A stretch of 27,761 bases of DNA from Longimicrobiales bacterium (lineage in GTDB: Bacteria > Gemmatimonadota > Gemmatimonadetes > Longimicrobiales > Gaopeijiaceae), in assembly GCA_965197725.1 (NCBI GenBank), contig CBDANQ010000044.1:1-27761 (forward strand), given 5' to 3'. The position numbers and the translations under genes were made by a program. Below are positions 569-26,839 of the stretch, piece by piece. The notes under the pieces are model-generated. The model worked only from the letters and a program-made list of their open reading frames with translations, was not told the DNA's origin and ran no database searches. Within the stretch, counting starts at the first letter, position 1. Each line of letters starts with the position of its first letter.

Positions 569-3500
569 TCAGTCGCTGAGCAAATACTGAGTGACTAATG
601 CTCGTGTGATTGCTTGGCCGCGTGCGGAGAGCCGCCTGATGTTTTCCACCGACATCGCTGAGAAGTCAGTTGGGTAGTGGATTACCTCCTCGCGATCCAC
701 CCAGTTGGCGGGTTTAAGAGGTACACGACGGTCAATCTGGCCGAGAGCCGCGTAGATGAAGCCGTCTATGCGTCCGGACTCAGCGTGATCGTGGAGGCGC
801 GCCTTCGTCGCATCTTGAACCTTCCGCATGACCGCAGATACAACCTTCGTCATTCGCTTCGGCCAACTGCGCGGCATCGTCTCGCCAGTAAATTGCCCGG
901 CCCCGGCGTCGCTCGCGATGATGATGTCGGGGTTGTATGCGATTGCGCTGAGTAGGGAATCTCGGCCCGGTTCCATCACGCTGACCCCGAGGTTCTCGAA
1001 GACGCCGCCGTCAGTCACAATGACGCGATCCGTCGAGATTTTCCCCTGTTGCTCGAACGACCGCATCCATTCGAACGGCGGCAGGAACGGAGGATAGGCA
1101 GCCGAGGCCGCCACCGCGTCGGCAACTGGGAGTTCACTCGCGGATGCCCAACCGTATCTCCAGCTTCCGAAGCGTTCGTTGCTCATACGGAACGCGGTCC
1201 CGGTTCGAAGCTCGCACGCGTTGAAGACGATCGACTTGCCTTGGCGCGTGGGCGCATCGCAGTTCTGCGTGCCTACCGCGTCGGCGATGGCGTCGGCGAT
1301 GACGTGTGTGCGCGAGTACCGGCTTCGGATCGGCCAGGAAACGCGTGATACGGCGTCGACAGCGGGGCGGAGTGTGGGAAAGAGTGACCCGGCGAAACTA
1401 GCGATCCATGCTACCGAATCGGTCGCTAGGGTGGGCAGAGTCACAACGAGGAAGTTCCACAACAGCAGCAGAACGTGCGTGGGGTGGAGGAGTTGCTTCA
1501 GTGCGGGCCATACCAAACCGCGACGCAGGAACTTGACTGCGTTGCCGTCGATGTCGGCGAAGGGGGCTTCCGTATAGCCGAACAAACTGGTCATGACCGA
1601 TCCGCCGGAGACACCGGAGATTATATCTACTTCATCAAGGAGCTTGAGGTCTTCGAGCGCGCGTAGAGTGCCGAGATGAAACGCAACGGCGCGTGATCCG
1701 CCTCCGGACAGCGACAACCCGATGGCCTTGTCGAGTGCGGCTACCGGGGGTGGCGTTGTCAAGCCACCGCGGACGTTGATCGCCATTTCGATTCCGGTCC
1801 AGTGTGCGACTAAGTCGCGTTTCTCGAACGCGTATGCTCCCAGTTGCGGTCGCTCTCCAGCGGCATGTCCGACAATTACCATCAACTGATGCGCGCTGTC
1901 CACGTCTGCTGTGGCGAAGATGGTGCCGATGCCCGCGTAATCCGTCGCGCTGGGCTCGGCCCGGCTGACGGGATGGGAGTGCCAGGTTCCAACGTAACGC
2001 ATGATGCGGTGTGTGCGGTCTTTGTAGCCCTGGCACAGGTCGCTGGTGCCCTCCGTTCCGCAGACGAAGAGCTTGGTGGAGAACGTGCTGTCCCGCGGTG
2101 GTCCACTGACGTTGGTGATCCACGCTATCCCGAGGGTCTCGTCGAAGTCGCCGAAGAGCAATCCCCCGGTTTCGTGTTCCTCGGACCGTTCGCGTGCCCC
2201 GGCGTGAATCCAGCCGGTCATGTCCCGCCACGCGTTGGCTGACATGCGGAAGTCGATCCCGTCGGCCACCCAACGAATGTCGGGACGATACCGGATATCG
2301 TGTTGGTCGTGATCGGGCGACTGGGAGAAGAGGAAGCCGCTGGCGGTGTCGCCGGGCTCGGTTAGTCGGTCGGCCAACGCATTCAGTGCTCGGGCGGAAA
2401 GGCTGGCCACGTCGGCATGCGAGGCGACGAACGTTGGATCGGAGCATCCCGGTTCGGGCTGGCGGAGAGCTGTGCTGGCGTCGCTTGTCCAGAAGGCATG
2501 TGCCCAATTGCTCAGCCAAGGTCGATTGAGGGCCGTGAGGCCGAGACGACGAAGCACGTCGAGGGGTCCAGCTTTGTGTCCGAGTGGCGCGAGAACGGCG
2601 ACGGCGTACTGCGCTGTGGGGCTGACCATGATCGCAGCGACGGGGACACGCGGCGGGTGGTCCTTGAGTACGACCTCAAGCTTGCTTCTCACTCGTAGCG
2701 ACGCGGTCGCGTCGATAACGATATCGATGTCGGCGTCCCAGTCTGACCTGTTCAGTGTCTGGGAAATGATATTCTCTGCCTTGGTCGTCACCTTGAGGCC
2801 GGGCGCGACGGCGTGCAGCCGCCGCGCGAGTGCCTCGACCTTGGCGTCGTTGGTATCGATGGCGGAGAAGTTCTGGCGCACCAGTACACCGGGGGTGACG
2901 CGGGCTTGGTCGTAAAGCGTGAGTTCGCCGGCTCCGGCTCGCGCGAGGTGCTCCGCAATGAGGCCGCCGATCGCTCCGCAGCCCCAGAGTGCAACGCGTT
3001 TTCCGTGAAACCAGTCAACGGCCGTGCCCTTGTCTCGGCGCGTAATGATCTCGGGCCGATTTTCAAACACTTGGCACCAACGCACGCGTGCTTCGCTCCG
3101 CCAACTAATCAAGATCTGCCACACGGAGTCGATCAGGGCCTGGATCTGTTCAGGCGTTTCGCGACCCCTGTAGTGATTGCTAATGTCGCAGGCGAAGGAA
3201 GCATCGCGCAGCTTGGTGACGTCAGACGGTTCGATTTCCCAAAACGTGAGGTGTTGTCGTCGCTGAGAGAGGTCGCCGGCGACCCCCCGCGAGGGGGTGC
3301 CGATGCCGACATACAACGGCGCACCTTGGGAGACGCGCTCAGAGGCCAGCATCAGGTGCGCGAGTACGCGACTGCTTGGGACGCCCCTGATTTCAAGGTA
3401 TAGAAGCAGGTGGTGGACGGTTCGGGGATATTCGTACGGGAGTTCGAAGTCCAGCAAGACGGTTGGTGCGAACGAGACATCGTTCGGCACCGTGTAGACC

Positions 3501-3610
3501 GGCTGCCAGGCGTCGACCTCGAGGAGGTGGGGTTTGGTCCGCGTTAGCACGGCGGCGCCGAACCACGGCCAGTGGCTGCGATCCGGCGTGTCGGCGTTTA
3601 CACAGATGGA
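569..3610 (-). pseudogene. C-terminal ~1013 codons of an IS256-interrupted E2-E1(ThiF)-JAB-patatin fusion protein
   Basis: ThiF/E1 motifs KRVALWGCGAIGG, D..VTPGVLVRQ, DATAS and PEPGCSDPTF (Cys at 2444-2446). JAB motifs ETGGLLFG and WHSHPVSRAEPSATD. Patatin motifs LSGGGSRAVAFHLG, GVSGG and DGG. The first ~127 aa of the listed 1140-aa ORF are IS-derived. Confidence 0.9.
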
Positions 3611-5068
3611 GATGGTGTCCCGCTGACAGTTGAAGGTGGTGGCTCCAGAGTAACTCTTGGTTAACCTGCCTTCCTCATTTGGGCAACTGGTTCGTGGTCG
3701 TCGAGGTGGGCTTTGAGCATCCAGAGCTGGTCGAAGCCGATGATGCGGCGGTAGCTCTTCTCGGTCTCCACGAACGAGGCCGCCGCCCATCTGAGGGCCA
3801 TCGCTCCGTTCTTCCAATTCGTCACCCTGCGGGTCTTCTGTCTCACACCCGAGTGGGTGCTGTCGATCAGGTTGGTAGAGCCCAGGCATTTCCTTAGCCG
3901 GGGCGGTAGGCCGAGCCGGTTGATCGTGAACATCTCGCTGAGGCCTTCGCGTAGGCTGGCCGCGGCCGAAGGGTGATCTCGTTCGAGCCATCGGGCGAGC
4001 TGCTCGAGCTTCTGCTCGCCCTCCTTCGCGTCCAGCTTCATCGCTGCCCGGAACACCGCCTTCACCTGAGCGTGCTGATCCTTCGGCAGATGACCCAGCA
4101 CGTTGCGGAGCTTGTGGTTGCGGCAGCGCTGGATGGGGTGACGTTGGCCGAACACCTTCTCGATCGCCTTCCTGAGCGCTTTCGAGCCATCGATCACGAA
4201 CAGCCGCCGCCTGCCCGGGTCCAGGCCGCGCTCGACCAGATCCTCTAGGAGCGCGCTGGTCACCTCGGCGTTCTCACTCGCTCCTTCCCTCACGCCCAGC
4301 ACGTGCTTCTTTCCGTCTGAGTCCACGCCTACCGCAGCAAGCACGTGGTGCGAGCCCATCTGGATCCCGTCCAGGTAGATCACCAGGAGGTCCCACGCAT
4401 CCAGCCGGCGCTCCATCAGCTCCTTCAGCACGCGCTCCGAGGCCTCGACCGTCTCACGGCTCACCGCCGACTTGCTCACCCCGACCGTGTCGGCCATCTC
4501 ACCGATCACACGGCCGTACTTCCGCGTGCTCACCCCCGCCATCAGGACCTCGAGCATCCGATCCGCCACGGCGCCCGGTCTCCGCATCGCTGCGTACGCC
4601 GGCACCTCGACCTCGCCACCCTCCCCGGCGCCCCGGCGCCTGAGCCGTGGCCGCTCCACACGCACCTTCCGGTCCGACAGGTAAACCACACCACCCTGCC
4701 GGCCATACCACACCGTGTCGTCTTCCGCTCGTGACCGACCTGCCTGCTTCACGCCTGCCACACCCTCGGCGCTCATCTCCAGCACCGCTTCGATCGTCGC
4801 TCGTCCCATCACCTGGATGACTTCGGCGATCGCGACCTCCGTCTGCTCCACGAGATCAAGCATCGGAAGCAGAAACTGCCCCTCCCGCTTCAGGAACTCC
4901 CTGATCGCGCGCTTGTCCGCCCGATCCCTTACCTCGTACGTTCTCTTCATCGTGGTGGCTCCGTGTTGGGGGTTTTTCCCTGCCCGATCCTACCTGGATC
5001 GGGTCCCCCGGAGCCACCACTTCTTTTCTCCCCTATCAGGGACCTTCAACTACCGACGGGACAGCTTC
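3611..5068 (-). mobile_element. IS256-family insertion sequence, copy 1 (1458 bp)
   Basis: Imperfect 27-bp terminal IRs (GAAGCTGTCCCGTCGGTAGTTGAAGGT / GATGGTGTCCCGCTGACAGTTGAAGGT). 8-bp direct repeat CAGATGGA at 3603-3610 and 5069-5076. Near-identical to 19426-20883. Confidence 0.95.
3661..4950 (-). CDS. IS256-family (Mutator-like) DDE transposase
   Basis: 429 aa with GVSTRK, YLDG, VIDGSKAL, QRCRNHKLRN and STNLIDS motifs. The catalytic Glu position reads D in NLIDS. Confidence 0.95.
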   Translation of the reverse strand: MKRTYEVRDRADKRAIREFLKREGQFLLPMLDLVEQTEVAIAEVIQVMGRATIEAVLEMSAEGVAGVKQAGRSRAEDDTVWYGRQGGVVYLSDRKVRVERPRLRRRGAGEGGEVEVPAYAAMRRPGAVADRMLEVLMAGVSTRKYGRVIGEMADTVGVSKSAVSRETVEASERVLKELMERRLDAWDLLVIYLDGIQMGSHHVLAAVGVDSDGKKHVLGVREGASENAEVTSALLEDLVERGLDPGRRRLFVIDGSKALRKAIEKVFGQRHPIQRCRNHKLRNVLGHLPKDQHAQVKAVFRAAMKLDAKEGEQKLEQLARWLERDHPSAAASLREGLSEMFTINRLGLPPRLRKCLGSTNLIDSTHSGVRQKTRRVTNWKNGAMALRWAAASFVETEKSYRRIIGFDQLWMLKAHLDDHEPVAQMRKAG

Positions 5069-5535
5069 CAGATGGATGTCGAGGCGACAGTGTAGGCGAT
5101 GGGGGGATGCAGGGGCTCTTCTGGATGACCGAGCTCGTTTCGGGCGCCGCGTCGTAGCCATTCGTCGAGCTGGGCGATGAAACCGAACATGCCCAGGGAC
5201 GGGTTCCACTGGGTCTCGGGGGAGACGTACAGGCACAACCAGTGCCCCCAGTGAACGTGCCCAAAGCCGTGGAAGCGGGTGTGGGCGGTGACCGCACTAG
5301 GGGGGTTGAACGGGAATTCGGCCGGGATCCACAGCGTGATGCCTTCCCGGTCGTGCAGTCGCAGACCGCCTTCGACGTGCTCGTGACCGGTGCAATCGAG
5401 GGTGACGTGGACGACTAACGAGGCACCGGGGTCGGCGCTTTCCTCGACCCCTATAATCCGAACGGGTGATCGATCAGTATCTGCGATCCGTCGCAACTGG
5501 TCGAGTGCGGTGCGCTGGCCTTCACTCAGTGCCAC
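5069..5535 (-). pseudogene. N-terminal prokaryotic E2 (UBC-fold) domain of the IS-split fusion gene
   Basis: IPAEFPFNPP...HVHWGHWLCLY...WNPS...LDEWL fits an E2 fold with a catalytic Cys. The GTG start overlaps the MBL 3' end. Removing the IS and one TSD joins ...VASTSI to CVNADTP in frame. Confidence 0.88.
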
Positions 5536-6292
5536 GACCGAACCCGACAGCCGTCGCGGGCGGGATGGCCGCTCCGCTGGCAGCCTTTAGCGTCTGACTA
5601 ATCGACTTGCTGGATTCGGTCTCGCCGACATACGCGAAGCCGTTCGGGCTGACCTCGAAGATGATGGGCTCGGAGTTCTTCTCGTTCCGATGCTCCTGAG
5701 TGCAGATGAACTCGTTCGGGACGATGCGCTCGTACTGCACCTTCGCCTTGGCGTGCGGCGGGTTGTCGCCCGGATCGTTTCTGGCCGGCACTGGTTCAGA
5801 GCTCGAGACCACGTATCCCGGGTCGAGGGCAGCGTTGCCGAGGTCGCGAACGATGTCGTCCTTCCGCGTCTCGTCCTCCTCTCCGTCATCCTTCCAGTAC
5901 ATGACGGACTTGGAGCAATGATGGGGGGCGAGCAGTGCGTTCCACTGGACGGTCGCGGGCTCGCTGCGGTCAAAGATCCGTCGGATGACGGGATAGCTGA
6001 GGTCACCCATGAGCAGTGCCCGGCCGCAGCCGTTCCCGGTGTAGAGTGAGATTTGGAAGGCTAGGCTGCAGTCGTTGCGGTCGCCGAAGCTGTCGTCCTT
6101 GAACGGCGCGTGCACGAACACCTCGAATACATGGGAGAGATCGTCACCGTCTAGGATCGTGACAGTTTGGCCGGGAATGGTCAGGAACTCCTCGGGGAAA
6201 CCTTCGAAATCGGGTTTTTGCAGCAATTCGTCGTAGCCGATGATACGGATCCGATGACCGCGGCCGGGGTCACCTCCCGCGTCAATGGCCCG
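5522..6292 (-). pseudogene. 5'-truncated ComEC/Rec2-like metallo-beta-lactamase fold protein
   Basis: C-terminal MBL motifs RNDCSL, LLMGD and APHHCS. The frame extends upstream of the listed TTG (RAIDAGGDPGRGHRIRIIGYDELL) to a stop at the IS1595 junction (6293-6295). The N-terminal HxHxDH-type motif is absent. Confidence 0.8.
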
Positions 6293-6426
6293 TCAAGCAC
6301 ATGGACCGCTACCTGGAAGAGCTGGAGTGGCGGTTCAACAACCGGAACAACCCCTACATCTTCCACGACACGCTGGCCCGCATCATGAACACCGATCCGC
6401 TGGAGTACAGAGACCTGGTAGCCTAG
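6292..6426 (+). pseudogene. C-terminal fragment of an IS1595-family (ISXO2-like) transposase
   Basis: Manual translation VKHMDRYLEELEWRFNNRNNPYIFHDTLARIMNTDPLEYRDLVA* matches the KHLxRYLxExxxRFNxR signature. Confidence 0.8.
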
Positions 6427-7639
6427 TGTCACGTCATGCTTGTAGTGTCGTAATATAGATCGTATCTTCTCTGCATCCCCCACGCGGGAGGAATGCAGAT
6501 GAAGAAATACGTCGTGACGCTGCTCGAGGAGGAGCGCGAAGCTCTTGGCGCACTCACATCGAAGGGCAAGCACAGATCCCAGAAAATTCTCAACGCACTG
6601 ATCTTGCTGGGGTGTGATGCGGGCGAGTTTCAGACGGAGCGCTCGACGAATGAAGAGATCGCCCGCGTGCTGAAGATCAGCATGCGGAAGATCGATCGAG
6701 TGAAGAGGCGCTTCGTCGTTGACGGTCTTGAGGTGTGCCTGAACGGGACGAAGGGGAGCCGCGTCTACGCGAAGAAAGCGGACGGGGACCTTGAAGCTCA
6801 TCTGGTGGCGCTGAGTTGCAGTGACCCGCCGGAAGGCTTTGCGAGGTGGTCTCTGAGGTTGTTGGCGGACCAAGTCGTCGAGCTCGGCTACATCGACAGC
6901 GTCTCGCACGAAACCGTCCGTCGCGTTCTAAAAAAAACGAACTCAAGCCCTGGCGGCGGAAGGGATGGGTGATTCCGCCGGAGCACAACAGCAGTTTCGT
7001 CGCTCATATGGAGAGGGTGTTGGACGTCTACAAGCGACCGTTCGATCCCCTGCGTCCCGTGGTCTGCATGGACGAATCTCCCAAGCAACTGATCGCCGAG
7101 ACGAGGGTCCCGATTCCTGGGTTGCCGGGACGGGTGGCCAGACACGACTACGAATACAGGCGCTGCGGTGTATGCACGGTGTTCCTCGCAAGCGAGCCCT
7201 TGGCCGGAAAGCGCATGGTCAGGATCACGGAAAGAAGAACAAAGCGGGACTGGGCCCATTTCCTTGAGGAGATCGCAGACCAGTACGAAAGCGCGGAGAA
7301 GATCACGCTGGTCATGGACAACCTGAATACCCACGTGCCGGGATCGCTGTACGAGGCATTTGCCCCGGACAAAGCCAAGGCGCTATGGGATCGCTTCGAT
7401 TTCGTCTACACCCCGAAGCACGGAAGCTGGCTGAATGTGGCCGAAATCGAGTTGAACGTGCTCAGCACGCAGTGTCTGGACAGGAGAATCGACGACATCA
7501 ACGTGGTCCGACGCGAGGTCGAAGCGTGGCAGTCCTTCCGAGACAACAAGAACGCACGCGTCAATTGGCAGTTCACCACACCCGACGCACGGATCAAGCT
7601 CGCTCGGCTCTATCCGACATTCGATGAGTGACGCGACAC
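6426..7639 (+). mobile_element. IS630-family insertion sequence (~1214 bp) inserted at CTAG
   Basis: Terminal IRs GTGTCACGTCA / TGACGCGACAC, flanked by duplicated TA at 6424-6425 and 7640-7641. Confidence 0.9.
6499..7631 (+). CDS. IS630 transposase, made from HTH and DDE ORFs joined by a -1 frameshift
   Basis: The HTH ORF (RWSLRLLA, SHETVRRVLKK) overlaps the DDE ORF (CMDE, VMDNLNTH, SWLNVAEIE) at the A8 run 6930-6937. SD GGGAGG precedes ATG 6499. Confidence 0.9.
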
Positions 7640-7672
7640 TAGATAGGTTAGCGAAGTTCGGGGCCAACGCGG

Positions 7673-14813: not shown

Positions 14814-15875
14814 GGTGGAGGCGGGAGTACGGCGGGATGAAGGTGAGCCAGGCACGGCGCCTGAAGGAGCTCGAGCGCGAGAACGGGCGCCTGAAGCGAG
14901 CAGTGGCGGACTTGACACTGGACAAGCTGATCCTGGAGGAAGCGGCCAGGGGAAACTTCTGAGCCCCGAGCGCCGACGACGTTGTGTGGTGCGTGTACGT
15001 CAGCAGCTCGGGGCGTCGGAGAGGAGAGCGTGCCGGGTGCTCGGGCAGCCACGCACGACCCAGCGCCGGGCGAGGAAAGTGGCGAGTGACGAGGGGGCGC
15101 TCCGAGGTGATATCGTGCGACTCGCGAGTCGATTCGGCCGCTATGGCTACCGACGCGTCACGGACATGCTCCGCATCGAGGGCTGGGGGGTGAAGCACAA
15201 GCGGGTGGAGCGGATCTGGAGGCAGGAGGGGCTGAAGGTTCCGGAGCGGCAGCCGAAGAGAGGTCGGCTGTGGCTCAACGACGGATCGTGCATCCGGCTG
15301 AGGCCGCTGTATCGGGGCCACGTCTGGTCGTACGACTTCGTGGCCTCGAGGACGCACGACGGGCGTGCGCTGAAGCTGCTGACAGTGCTGGACGAGCACA
15401 CGAGGGAGTGCCTGGCGATCGTGGTGGCTCGCAAGATCCGCTCGCACGACGTGCTCGAGGTGCTGGCCGATCTGTTCGTCCGACACGGGCCTCCCGAGTA
15501 TCTGAGGTCGGACAACGGACTGGAGTTCACCGCGAAGCTCGTGCGGTGGTGGTTGGGGCGCGTGGGCGTCGAGATGCTCTTTATCGAGCCGGGCAGCCCG
15601 TGGGAGAACGGCTACAACGAGAGCTTCAACGGCAAGCTCAGGGACGAGCTGTTGAACGGGGAGATCTTCTACTCGTTGGCGGAGGCGGCCGTGCTGGTCG
15701 AGCAATAGAGGCGCGAGTACAATACCGTTCGACCCCACAGCGCCTGCGGCGGCTTTCCCCCGGCCCCTGAGGCGATTAAGCCGTCGCCCTGGTTCCTGAG
15801 GATGCCCGTCCTTCACGGCCCTCCACAGGTGCTGGGACTAACATAGGATGTGGTACCACTCTTGGGGGCAGGTCA
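14814..15875 (+). mobile_element. IS3-family element, 5'-truncated and inactive copy
   Basis: Matches 22559-23620 and lacks the first 208 bp including the left IR. It has TGG>TAG at 15706-15708 and Pro>Leu at 15521. The right end is ...GGGGGCAGGTCA. Confidence 0.93.
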
Positions 15876-19170: not shown

Positions 19171-19425
19171 GAACTCCTTCGTTGTGGAGTTGTTGGGCGC
19201 TTCCTGGAAGCCCGGCATCGATCGTAGGATCCCGAAGGGTATGGGTGTCTGAATCGTGCGGGCATCTCTTGCGGTCGGCGGCCAAGGTAACATGGGCTTC
19301 ACCACGCGGCGCGGGGCACGAGCGCCCGCCCATCAAGCAGCTCGTCTAGCCGCGTGATGTAGAGGCCTAGTGTCCCGTTTGGAAAAGCGCGTGTGAACCG
19401 AGAGTGCCGAGCCACTGCTAGGGAG

Positions 19426-20883
19426 GAAGCTGTCCCGTCGGTAGTTGAAGGTCCCTGATAGGGGAGAAAAGAAGTGGTGGCTCCGGGGGACCCGATCCAG
19501 GTAGGATCGGGCAGGGAAAAACCCCCAACACGGAGCCACCACGATGAAGAGAACGTACGAGGTAAGGGATCGGGCGGACAAGCGCGCGATCAGGGAGTTC
19601 CTGAAGCGGGAGGGGCAGTTTCTGCTTCCGATGCTTGATCTCGTGGAGCAGACGGAGGTCGCGATCGCCGAAGTCATCCAGGTGATGGGACGAGCGACGA
19701 TCGAAGCGGTGCTGGAGATGAGCGCCGAGGGTGTGGCAGGCGTGAAGCAGGCAGGTCGGTCACGAGCGGAAGACGACACGGTGTGGTATGGCCGGCAGGG
19801 TGGTGTGGTTTACCTGTCGGACCGGAAGGTGCGTGTGGAGCGGCCACGGCTCAGGCGCCGGGGCGCCGGGGAGGGTGGCGAGGTCGAGGTGCCGGCGTAC
19901 GCAGCGATGCGGAGACCGGGCGCCGTGGCGGATCGGATGCTCGAGGTCCTGATGGCGGGGGTGAGCACGCGGAAGTACGGCCGTGTGATCGGTGAGATGG
20001 CCGACACGGTCGGGGTGAGCAAGTCGGCGGTGAGCCGTGAGACGGTCGAGGCCTCGGAGCGCGTGCTGAAGGAGCTGATGGAGCGCCGGCTGGATGCGTG
20101 GGACCTCCTGGTGATCTACCTGGACGGGATCCAGATGGGCTCGCACCACGTACTTGCTGCGGTAGGCGTGGACTCAGACGGAAAGAAGCACGTGCTGGGC
20201 GTGAGGGAAGGAGCGAGTGAGAACGCCGAGGTGACCAGCGCGCTCCTAGAGGATCTGGTCGAGCGCGGCCTGGACCCGGGCAGGCGGCGGCTGTTCGTGA
20301 TCGATGGCTCGAAAGCGCTCAGGAAGGCGATCGAGAAGGTGTTCGGCCAACGTCACCCCATCCAGCGCTGCCGCAACCACAAGCTCCGCAACGTGCTGGG
20401 TCATCTGCCGAAGGATCAGCACGCTCAGGTGAAGGCGGTGTTCCGGGCAGCGATGAAGCTGGACGCGAAGGAGGGCGAGCAGAAGCTCGAGCAGCTCGCC
20501 CGATGGCTCGAACGAGATCACCCTTCGGCCGCGGCCAGCCTACGCGAAGGCCTCAGCGAGATGTTCACGATCAACCGGCTCGGCCTACCGCCCCGGCTAA
20601 GGAAATGCCTGGGCTCTACCAACCTGATCGACAGCACCCACTCGGGTGTGAGACAGAAGACCCGCAGGGTGACGAATTGGAAGAACGGAGCGATGGCCCT
20701 CAGATGGGCGGCGGCCTCGTTCGTGGAGACCGAGAAGAGCTACCGCCGCATCATCGGCTTCGACCAGCTCTGGATGCTCAAAGCCCACCTCGACGACCAC
20801 GAACCAGTTGCCCAAATGAGGAAGGCAGGTTAACCAAGAGTTACTCTGGAGCCACCACCTTCAACTGTCAGCGGGACACTATC
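19426..20883 (+). mobile_element. IS256-family insertion sequence, copy 2 (1458 bp), intergenic
   Basis: Same IRs as copy 1. 8-bp TSD CTAGGGAG at 19418-19425 and 20884-20891. Confidence 0.95.
19544..20833 (+). CDS. IS256-family transposase
   Basis: Protein identical to 3661-4950. Confidence 0.95.
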   Translation: MKRTYEVRDRADKRAIREFLKREGQFLLPMLDLVEQTEVAIAEVIQVMGRATIEAVLEMSAEGVAGVKQAGRSRAEDDTVWYGRQGGVVYLSDRKVRVERPRLRRRGAGEGGEVEVPAYAAMRRPGAVADRMLEVLMAGVSTRKYGRVIGEMADTVGVSKSAVSRETVEASERVLKELMERRLDAWDLLVIYLDGIQMGSHHVLAAVGVDSDGKKHVLGVREGASENAEVTSALLEDLVERGLDPGRRRLFVIDGSKALRKAIEKVFGQRHPIQRCRNHKLRNVLGHLPKDQHAQVKAVFRAAMKLDAKEGEQKLEQLARWLERDHPSAAASLREGLSEMFTINRLGLPPRLRKCLGSTNLIDSTHSGVRQKTRRVTNWKNGAMALRWAAASFVETEKSYRRIIGFDQLWMLKAHLDDHEPVAQMRKAG

Positions 20884-22353: not shown

Positions 22354-23620
22354 CCTGACCCCCTGAAACGAGACCAGGTGCAATGTTAGGATCGACCTGG
22401 TCTGAAGCTTTTCAGCGAGGAGGTCAGGATGGGAAGGAAGCGACACACTCCGGAGCAGAGCATCACTGCACTGCGGGAGGCAGAGGTCGGTCTGGCCCGC
22501 GGCAAATCCGTGAAGCTGATCAGCCGGGAGCTGGGCATCACCGAGCAGACGTACTACCGGTGGAGGCGGGAGTACGGCGGGATGAAGGTGAGCCAGGCAC
22601 GGCGCCTGAAGGAGCTCGAGCGCGAGAACGGGCGCCTGAAGCGAGCAGTGGCGGACTTGACACTGGACAAGCTGATCCTGGAGGAAGCGGCCAGGGGAAA
22701 CTTCTGAGCCCCGAGCGCCGACGACGTTGTGTGGTGCGTGTACGTCAGCAGCTCGGGGCGTCGGAGAGGAGAGCGTGCCGGGTGCTCGGGCAGCCACGCA
22801 CGACCCAGCGCCGGGCGAGGAAAGTGGCGAGTGACGAGGGGGCGCTCCGAGGTGATATCGTGCGACTCGCGAGTCGATTCGGCCGCTATGGCTACCGACG
22901 CGTCACGGACATGCTCCGCATCGAGGGCTGGGGGGTGAAGCACAAGCGGGTGGAGCGGATCTGGAGGCAGGAGGGGCTGAAGGTTCCGGAGCGGCAGCCG
23001 AAGAGAGGTCGGCTGTGGCTCAACGACGGATCGTGCATCCGGCTGAGGCCGCTGTATCGGGGCCACGTCTGGTCGTACGACTTCGTGGCCTCGAGGACGC
23101 ACGACGGGCGTGCGCTGAAGCTGCTGACAGTGCTGGACGAGCACACGAGGGAGTGCCTGGCGATCGTGGTGGCTCGCAAGATCCGCTCGCACGACGTGCT
23201 CGAGGTGCTGGCCGATCTGTTCGTCCGACACGGGCCTCCCGAGTATCTGAGGTCGGACAACGGACCGGAGTTCACCGCGAAGCTCGTGCGGTGGTGGTTG
23301 GGGCGCGTGGGCGTCGAGATGCTCTTTATCGAGCCGGGCAGCCCGTGGGAGAACGGCTACAACGAGAGCTTCAACGGCAAGCTCAGGGACGAGCTGTTGA
23401 ACGGGGAGATCTTCTACTCGTTGGCGGAGGCGGCCGTGCTGGTCGAGCAATGGAGGCGCGAGTACAATACCGTCCGACCCCACAGCGCCTGCGGCGGCTT
23501 TCCCCCGGCCCCTGAGGCGATTAAGCCGTCGCCCTGGTTCCTGAGGATGCCCGTCCTTCACGGCCCTCCACAGGTGCTGGGACTAACATAGGATGTGGTA
23601 CCACTCTTGGGGGCAGGTCA
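22351..23620 (+). mobile_element. IS3-family element, full length (1270 bp)
   Basis: TG...CA ends with IRs TGACCTGACCCC / GGGGGCAGGTCA. No target duplication (GAC versus GGG). Confidence 0.93.
22429..23591 (+). CDS. IS3 transposase OrfAB, via -1 programmed frameshift
   Basis: OrfA 22429-22707 (HTH and leucine zipper), slippery G GGA AAC at 22695-22701, and OrfB with WSYD, SDNGPEF and NGYNESFN DDE motifs. Confidence 0.92.
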
Positions 23621-25065: not shown

Positions 25066-25150
25066 CGGAGGCGGAGGGACTCGAACCCCCAAGGGTGATT
25101 AACCCGCCGCATTTCGAGTGCGGTGCCTTACCAATTAGGACTACGCCTCC
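25066..25150 (-). tRNA. tRNA-Ser(CGA)
   Basis: GGAGGCG/CGCCTCC acceptor stem, anticodon arm CCGCA-CTCGAAA-TGCGG, long variable arm, GGTTCGAGTCC T-loop, discriminator G. CCA is not encoded. Confidence 0.92.
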
Positions 25151-25216
25151 GAACGATCGAAGTAATCGGCCAGATGGACCCAACCTATCATCGGGACCGC
25201 CCGGTGGTCCCACCAA

Positions 25217-25290
25217 TCGGGGCGCCCGGATTTGAACCGGGGACCTCTGCGTCCCGAACGCAGCGCTCTACCGGACTGAGCCACGCCCCG
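25217..25290 (-). tRNA. tRNA-Pro(CGG)
   Basis: CGGGGCG/CGCCCCG acceptor stem, anticodon arm CTGCG-TTCGGGA-CGCAG, GGTTCAAATCC T-loop. CCA is not encoded. Confidence 0.95.
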
Positions 25291-25333
25291 TACACCGATC
25301 GACCCTCAGCTGTCAGTGGACCAACGCCCAACA

Positions 25334-25465
25334 AGGTCGCGATTCGAACCTCGGCGGCTTGCCGCCGAGGTGGCCGAGGTGCGCAGCACCGCAGGCCCAC
25401 CCACGCCAGAAGTCGGTGCGCCTCGCGCACCGGCTTCCGTGGGTTTGAATCCCACCCGAAGACCT
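25334..25465. repeat. Multi-hairpin REP-like element in the tRNA leader
   Basis: Hairpins ACCTCGGCGGC/GCCGCCGAGGT and GAAGTCGGTGCG/CGCACCGGCTTC are enclosed by complementary GATTCGAACC/GGTTTGAATC and AGGTC/GACCT. Confidence 0.6.
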
Positions 25466-25546
25466 CTCAGCTGCTGCCCACCCTCGCGCCGACGCGACCG
25501 CAAGGGGTCAATCCAACATAGCGGACGGGGTGTCCCTTTTCTAGGG

Positions 25547-25575: not shown

Positions 25576-25615
25576 TGGTTACCTAAGCCACTGTAAACGT
25601 GTGATTTACCCGACA

Positions 25616-25674
25616 TTGACTTGTCATGCCGTTCCGCTTAGTATCACTCTAAATCTGATAACTGGAGTGATACT
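25616..25674 (+). promoter_or_regulatory. Putative sigma70 promoter of the integrase with an overlapping inverted repeat
   Basis: TTGACT(25616)-N17-TAGTAT(25639). Perfect 10-bp IR AGTATCACTC (25640-25649) / GAGTGATACT (25665-25674). Confidence 0.7.
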
Positions 25675-25678
25675 CTAC

Positions 25679-26839
25679 ATGAGGCGACCGAAGCAACTGA
25701 GCGGTGCGTTCGTAAAGACCGTCACGCAGCCCGGACGGTATGGAGACGGACGCGGCGGGCATGGCCTTTCCCTGCTCGTAAAGCCCACAACTACCGGGCG
25801 CCTGTCAAAGACTTGGTCCCAAAGGCTACAGATTCACGGAAAGGCGGTCAACATCGGGCTCGGTTCCTTCCCAGTGACGACGTTAGCCGACGCCCGGAAG
25901 AAGGCTCTCGCCAACCGCCGGACCGTCGCGCGAGGGGCCGATCCGCTTGGGAGCGGCATACCAACGTTCGCCGAGGCCGTCGACAAGGTGATCGCGATTC
26001 ATCGGGGCTCTTGGAGAGCGGGCAGCAAGAGCGAAGTCCAATGGAGAGCATCACTCCGGGACTACGCGACACCGGGCTTGGGCGACAAGCGCGTAGATCA
26101 GGTCACTACGGCTGACGTGCTGTCCGTCTTGGTCCCGATCTGGAACATCAAGCGCGAGACGGCGCGGCGGGTGCGTCAGCGAGTCGGAGCTGTAATGAAG
26201 TGGGCGGTCGCGAAGGGCTACCGGGAAGACAACCCGGCCGGTGACGCGATCGGCGCGGCGTTACCCCGGCACGGAGGCTCTACCCGGCATTTCCCCGCCC
26301 TGCCGCACAGTCAGGTTAGTTCGGCCTTGGCGATTGTACAAGCTTCCGGGGCGTGGATCGGTACCAAGTTGGCCTTCGAGTTTCTCGTCTTGACAGCTGC
26401 ACGATCCGGCGAGGCTCGCAATGCGCGGTGGGAGGAAATCGACCTGGAGAACGCAACATGGACGGTGCCAGGGGAACGCATGAAAGCTGGCCGGTCGCAC
26501 CGGGTGCCGCTATCGCCGCAGGCGGTCGCCGTGCTCCACACGGCACGTGTGATCGTCGACGGTGGTGCGTTGATCTTCCCGGCCAGCACGGGGCGCGCCC
26601 TGTCCGCCATGACGATGACCAAGCTGGTTCGCGAGCTCGGGATCGAGGCGGTCCCCCACGGATTTCGCGCCAGTTTCCGGGACTGGGCGGCCGAGGAAAC
26701 GGACCATCCTCGCGAGGTCATCGAGGCAGCATTGGCGCATGTGGTCCGGAACAAGGTCGAGGCGGCTTACAGGCGCACCGACCTTTTCGAGCGCCGGCGT
26801 CGGCTCATGGACGACTGGGCAGCCTATCTGGCCGACTGA
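25679..26839 (+). CDS. P4-like tyrosine integrase with arm-DNA-binding domain
   Basis: N-terminal PGRYGDG..GLSLLV...IGLGSFP..TLADAR. Catalytic residues TAARSGE, MKAGRSHRVPL, HGFR, LAH and AY are all intact. Confidence 0.93.
   Translation: MRRPKQLSGAFVKTVTQPGRYGDGRGGHGLSLLVKPTTTGRLSKTWSQRLQIHGKAVNIGLGSFPVTTLADARKKALANRRTVARGADPLGSGIPTFAEAVDKVIAIHRGSWRAGSKSEVQWRASLRDYATPGLGDKRVDQVTTADVLSVLVPIWNIKRETARRVRQRVGAVMKWAVAKGYREDNPAGDAIGAALPRHGGSTRHFPALPHSQVSSALAIVQASGAWIGTKLAFEFLVLTAARSGEARNARWEEIDLENATWTVPGERMKAGRSHRVPLSPQAVAVLHTARVIVDGGALIFPASTGRALSAMTMTKLVRELGIEAVPHGFRASFRDWAAEETDHPREVIEAALAHVVRNKVEAAYRRTDLFERRRRLMDDWAAYLAD

Follow-up and report, generated by a model that had tools for sequence, protein, structure and literature searches.

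In a 6A-MBL anti-phage operon, the MBL-fold enzyme probably ends in a flexible tail whose Phe-Gly is adenylated and joined to a target by the adjacent E2-E1-JAB protein after the JAB peptidase has cut off the residues RGTE, and the broken copy described here is itself probably inactive; we put the probability of this reading at roughly 0.8. The copy lies in a stretch of 27,761 nt (contig CBDANQ010000044.1, assembly GCA_965197725.1, Longimicrobiales bacterium), hereafter called the window. The evidence at the level of sequence comprises a flexible tail, a conserved aromatic-Gly, a variable extension set by a gene overlap, and intact catalytic motifs in the partner protein. The idea of conjugation for MBL operons has been stated already in the Discussion of PMC11601596. 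Our analysis adds comparative support to that mechanism, places the probable cut site after GFG, and traces the extension to the overlap of the two genes. The features of the window that bear on this are as follows.

569 to 3603, minus strand: 3' piece of the fusion gene, with linker, E1 (ThiF), JAB and patatin phospholipase in one frame (PF00899, PF14464, PF01734)
3611 to 5069, minus strand: IS256-family element splitting the fusion gene (PF00872)
5070 to 5535, minus strand: 5' piece of the fusion gene, an E2 domain with the His and Cys of HxxWxxxLC (PF14457, E = 9e-18)
5522 to 6289, minus strand: C-terminal two thirds (residues ~129 to 384) of the 6A-MBL MBL-fold enzyme, 94% identical to the relative P0002
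5522 to 5536, minus strand: variable extension RGTE (5525 to 5536) and stop codon (5522 to 5524), read from the sequence; 0 to 7 residues across 97 loci
5537 to 5545, minus strand: conserved Gly-Phe-Gly, its last Gly (5537 to 5539) being the putative mature C terminus and conjugation site
5546 to 5626, minus strand: Ala/Ser/Gly-rich linker, predicted to be flexible (pLDDT 36 to 53 from residue 351 of P0002)
6290 to 6426, plus strand: probable remnant of an IS1595-family transposase (PF12762, E = 0.026, below the cut-off)
6423 to 7643, plus strand: element upstream of the truncated MBL gene with HTH and DDE_3 domains (PF13565, PF13358), a pair that we take to mark the IS630 type

The C-terminal end of the MBL frame, on the minus strand, reads ...SGAAIPPATAVGFGRGTE, and its last part, AIPPATAVGFG-RGTE, occupies positions 5522 to 5569. 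The fusion gene starts with a GTG at 5535 and overlaps the end of the MBL gene by 14 nt, and 14 of the 15 nt that encode the extension and stop are shared with the start of the fusion gene. Both the GFG-RGTE tail and this overlap had been noted in the preliminary description and are confirmed in the sequence. The tail was also described there as low in complexity; the last 38 residues of the MBL have only a moderate bias (A7 G5 S5 T4) and are predicted to be flexible (pLDDT 36 to 53). The tail was modeled in P0002, a full-length relative of 384 residues, 94% identical to the window MBL, that served as a stand-in. Its AlphaFold2 model has a mean pLDDT of 91.2, with a confident core and a low-scoring tail (53, 52, 40 and 36 in blocks from residue 351). 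A proline near the end of the linker is moderately conserved (81/97 loci).

Operon type 6a, an E2-E1-JAB protein encoded beside an MBL, was described by Iyer, Burroughs and Aravind in 2006 (PMC1779556); PMC13276650 credits the anti-phage activity of 6A-MBL in P. aeruginosa to a study by van den Berg et al. 2024, and 6A-MBL or MBL operons are named in that article as well as in PMC13373217, PMC13700489 and bioRxiv 2025.09.30.679545. The MBL was identified via NCBIfam, profile and fold searches, with no match in Pfam for the window fragment or P0002, no match in PADLOC for the fragment, and no match for the MBL in a single-sequence PDB search. P0002 scores 291.8 bits against NF058524 (6A-MBL enzyme; cut-off 220) and the window fragment scores 160.7, while against NF058523 (6A-MBL cap2_3; cut-off 320) the intact fusion protein of locus L001 scores 356 and the window pieces score 62.6 (5' piece) and 282.3 (3' piece). 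The window proteins fall below both cut-offs because they are fragments; full-length relatives pass both. The operon resembles 6A-MBL also in having two genes, an MBL followed by a single-chain E2-E1-JAB protein, and no separate ubiquitin-like protein, and differs in carrying a patatin C-terminal to the JAB in the same chain and in that both genes are broken in the window copy. Judged from sequence, we assign both genes to the anti-phage system already named 6A-MBL and regard the window copy as a decayed representative of it.

The decay has affected both genes. The window MBL lacks its first ~129 residues, including the metal motif THPDLDH (HxHxDH; residues 74 to 80 of P0002). When P0002 was searched against the window's genome (G000; assembly 88.9% complete), a single match was obtained, covering residues 129 to 384, and the N-terminal piece was not found there. 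Alignment with intact loci breaks off at 6288-6289, next to the probable IS1595-family remnant. The IS256 element in the fusion gene is flanked by a 7-bp duplication (3604 to 3610 and 5070 to 5076), and the two pieces of the gene sum to 1167 codons, with intact fusion relatives measuring 1136 to 1169 aa. Contigs of related strains carry the fusion gene free of the element in 4/4 runs. That the element might be an assembly artefact was considered and is unlikely given the duplication; no contig from these runs spans the whole stretch, and both junctions are unbridged by reads. In L001 to L006 and others, both genes are intact and the MBL has the HxHxDH motif, unlike in the window copy. Since both of its genes are interrupted, the window copy is probably inactive, and it is for the same reason a poor test subject. 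The truncation of the MBL gene, the split by IS256, and the element-free form in related strains lead us to regard the tail as the remnant of a recently working system. The MBL or fusion gene is also in pieces at L007/L122, L008, L126, L010 and L120, and these broken related loci suggest frequent inactivation of the 6A-MBL operon.

A gene encoding E2, E1 and JAB lies next to the MBL gene in 89/89 loci with at least 400 nt downstream. The His and Cys of the E2 are invariant across the complete partners (65/65), as are the glycines, Arg, Lys and Cys of the E1 (65/65) and the Glu, His, His, Ser and Asp of the JAB (65/65). Among solved structures, Cap2 (7TSQ, E = 4e-20) is closest to the E1.

The tail is conserved well beyond the window. 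Among close relatives, taken as the best 120 of 1084 homologues with the window protein counted in, GFG is present in 116 and the other four lack the motif; it is followed by four residues in 110 of these proteins and by three in six. For more distant proteins, we considered 150 of 585 50%-cluster representatives, 68 of which are 345 to 415 residues long. In that set, [FYWH][GA] occurs within the last 12 residues of 63/68, the C terminus falls exactly on it in 33/68, and 5/68 lack the motif as defined. The corresponding background among long frames of the window's genome is 183/1080 (17%), or 23/1080 (2%) in the terminal position, and a control on the linker segment of the same 68 proteins found the motif in 11/68. 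Hence, an aromatic or His residue followed by Gly or Ala exceeds chance at this position, the motif class having been set post hoc with the tails already inspected. The C termini have the conserved FG and variable extension that the preliminary description had proposed to look for, and there are also natural forms that stop at the Gly. Ledvina 2023, in its Nature version, reportedly examined the tails and JABs of MBL operons. Two 6A-MBL-like enzymes that are longer than typical MBL homologues, P0256 and P0267, carry a C-terminal AGS-C domain (PF18134) in place of the Gly tail.

Conservation of the tail could also arise if it were a docking peptide only, one that binds the E1 or the JAB and regulates the complex without being trimmed or transferred, with E1 and E2 acting on some other substrate. 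This would sit comfortably with the nearer set of loci, where most tolerate an extension and only 6/97 end at the Gly. However, 33/68 distant proteins stop exactly at Gly or Ala, a feature that docking would not require but that the need for a free carboxylate accounts for; both the E1 and the E2 cysteine are conserved in 65/65 partners, and the operon has no other small partner. We therefore consider docking alone unlikely and suggest that it is probably the MBL that is conjugated, as the CD-NTase is in type II CBASS, and that the JAB likely matures it.

Under this conjugation reading, the MBL would be made as a pro-form that the JAB cuts after GFG, by analogy with BilC/BilA and with Cap3. 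By analogy with Cap2 and the CD-NTase, the E1 would adenylate the new terminal Gly, which would pass via the cysteines of the E1 and then the E2 and be ligated to an amine of the target, and the JAB would also reverse the link between MBL and target. More tentatively, conjugation might switch the activity of the MBL as a ComEC-like nuclease or phosphodiesterase, with the patatin perhaps acting as a membrane-damaging output. The proposal that E1 and E2 ligate the MBL to a target is thus supported insofar as its C terminus is, on comparative evidence, a likely substrate of E1 and E2; no evidence was found that this target is the patatin or a phage protein, as had also been suggested. A substrate matured by a JAB is expected to combine a conserved small residue near the C terminus, a flexible tail and a non-conserved extension, and the MBL has all three. 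A precedent is BilA (bioRxiv 10.1101/2023.09.26.559546), which has up to nine non-conserved residues beyond its Gly and is trimmed by BilC; removal by the JAB before E1 activation is a property of BilABCD that we would extend to the MBL. BilA differs from the MBL in being a beta-grasp ubiquitin-like protein with E1, E2 and JAB encoded by separate genes, whereas the carrier here is a 384-residue ComEC-like hydrolase. MBL goes unmentioned in the available portions of the bioRxiv versions of the Cap2 paper (10.1101/2022.03.31.486616) and the Bil paper (10.1101/2023.09.26.559546).

Conservation of the JAB is equally compatible with trimming and with deconjugation, and the MBL might be conjugated untrimmed, by transpeptidation at GFG or through its terminal Glu, leaving the JAB only to deconjugate. 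In V. cholerae, CBASS defence does not depend on Cap3, whose demonstrated role there is deconjugation (bioRxiv 10.1101/2022.03.31.486616), which fits such a scheme. It is nonetheless very improbable: E1 chemistry requires a free C-terminal carboxylate at a small residue, the terminal residues of the MBL vary freely, and BilA with one extra residue is not adenylated until BilC cuts it (bioRxiv 10.1101/2023.09.26.559546). Trimming followed by conjugation is thus the reading that we retain.

Where the JAB would cut can be judged from the extension itself. Loci were collected with queries from the window's own clade and for that reason are not independent; the 126 loci gave 116 MBL frames with a C terminus, of which 97 were left after removal of 11 that were repeated or ended early and 8 with identical tails. 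The extension in these 97 loci is absent (0 residues) in 6, one residue long in 13, two in 36, three in 18, four in 21 and five to seven in 3, and entropy after the Gly is 3.0 to 3.75 bits versus 0.9 at the aromatic position. In the 11 loci with a 14-nt overlap, the first residue of the extension is His where the next gene starts with ATG (3/3) and Arg, Ser or Gly where it starts with GTG (8/8). The apparent conservation of Arg-Gly after GFG (of the 116 close relatives, 93 have the R and 92 the G) is therefore dictated by the start of the next gene. As the extension varies and tracks the start codon of that gene, all of RGTE, rather than TE, is likely the piece removed by the JAB, with the cut after GFG. 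The preliminary description had left the choice between RGTE and TE open, and it is the former that comparison favors. Removal of TE only, exposing the second Gly, would be in keeping with the Arg-Gly of most close relatives (R 93/116, G 92/116), but we reject it, and give it hardly any credence, because that Gly is missing from 24/116 close and 71/91 wider extensions and the first extension residue is set by the next start (His with ATG, 3/3; Arg, Ser or Gly with GTG, 8/8). The notion that GFG is conserved only as a ribosome-binding site or coupling signal for the next gene draws on the G-rich codons that, in the window's clade, precede the next start by a few bases and is almost certainly wrong, since the Gly is encoded by all four Gly codons and the aromatic by Phe as well as Tyr codons across the 97 loci, the spacing between the Gly codon and the next start varies from -5 to +20 nt (88 loci; starts picked by rule), and the aromatic or His position is left unexplained.

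Natural variation also supplies material for experiments on the preferred mechanism. The MBL of locus L016 has GFG as its very last residues and forms the sister lineage of the group with four-residue extensions (SH-aLRT 100; quick tree with 58 rows). L016, without an extension, and L001, with one, hence form a natural pair for testing whether trimming by the JAB licenses defence.

We modeled the L001 E1 dimer with ATP and a Gly-ended form of the MBL of intact L001. The model scored 0.39 versus 0.00 for the best control, weakly supporting a complex, and gave no interface; the runs agree in at least 46% of contacts, and the partner pLDDT is at least 80. The mark for this score is reached by 116/157 solved and 2/215 mismatched pairs, and, at scores of 0.60 or under, by only 18/157 solved pairs but both of the mismatches. 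The score of 0.39 may be partly due to likeness to solved Cap2 complexes.

The MBL had been cast as a ubiquitin-like modifier, and of this idea the likely role as E1/E2 substrate stands, while the term itself is imprecise. Instead of a beta-grasp fold, the MBL has a ComEC-like one: the P0002 model is closest to the beta-lactamase-like domain of ComEC (9IC4, E = 1.8e-11), and a profile search agrees. The metal ligands are conserved in intact copies; the MBL would therefore be a conjugated enzyme, a metallo-hydrolase of the ComEC type that parallels the CD-NTase, not a ubiquitin-like tag. The likeness to type II CBASS extends to the E2-linker-E1 enzyme with Cap2 as its nearest solved relative, the JAB peptidase, a phospholipase nearby, and a large enzyme whose disordered tail with an aromatic-Gly/Ala is the likely substrate. 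Unlike in type II CBASS, the ligase shares one chain with the JAB and patatin, the tail bears an extension, and there is no nucleotide cyclase; no CD-NTase or cyclase match was found among the scanned operon proteins, and the upstream gene is the MBL.

Among 60 loci with 3.7 kb downstream, 28 have the patatin fused in a single chain, 1 has it in a fusion gene that is split, 20 encode it separately and 11 have no detected patatin, shares that are not family-wide because the loci were found with clade-specific queries. Of the 1164 residues of the fusion, the NF058523 match extends no further than residue 732. Among solved structures, the patatin matches only cPLA2-delta and, weakly, ExoU, over the catalytic N terminus, and has no CapV-type match at E values up to 0.1. 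A fusion of patatin to E2-E1-JAB was not found in print in our literature search, and patatin is not mentioned with operon type 6a in the available part of PMC1779556.

Other proteins occupy the corresponding position elsewhere. At L040 (8905 to 10122, plus strand), a 1165-residue E2-E1-JAB frame includes a calcineurin-like phosphoesterase (PF00149, E = 2e-7) at the patatin position, and L041 to L043 have an MBL tail in common with L040. At L046 (5871 to 6536), L063 (4483 to 5142) and L034 (8385 to 9095), all on the plus strand, no patatin is present and the E2-E1-JAB gene is followed by one for a hydrophobic protein of ~220 to 240 residues with three or four predicted membrane segments. These three proteins have no match in Pfam, NCBIfam or PADLOC and are possible alternative effectors. 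These arrangements hint that the slot after the JAB may hold interchangeable effectors. Separately, at L016 (10716 to 11621) and L037 (8441 to 9547), both on the plus strand, the fusion gene is immediately followed by another MBL-fold gene that is more distantly related. A SIR2 gene directly 3' of the 6A-MBL operon in L081 (4620 to 7172, plus strand) was considered as an effector and dropped, as it matches Argonaute-associated models.

In CBASS, conjugation has been reported both to activate and to sequester the enzyme. A tentative and, on balance, doubtful extension of our reading is that patatin-bearing 6A-MBL operons might constitute cyclase-free immune signalling, in which the JAB would license the pro-MBL by removing the overlap-derived extension, conjugation would switch the MBL on or off, and the conjugate or its product would trigger an interchangeable effector encoded after the JAB: the patatin here, the calcineurin-like phosphoesterase at L040, or the predicted membrane proteins at L034, L046 and L063.

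The surroundings of the operon are rich in mobile elements. A second copy of the IS256 element, 99.9% identical, lies at 19425 to 20883 of the window, and IS256 relatives are numerous in the genome. The probable IS1595-family remnant has matches of 80 to 95% elsewhere in G000, and the IS630-type element has a 99.8% copy on contig C9. Another transposase segment is present in two 99.7%-identical copies (window positions 14814 to 15875 and 22559 to 23620). Also in the window, an ORF at 25601 to 26839 (plus strand) resembles a tyrosine integrase and sits beside an apparent tRNA sequence near 25150 to 25480, both read by eye.
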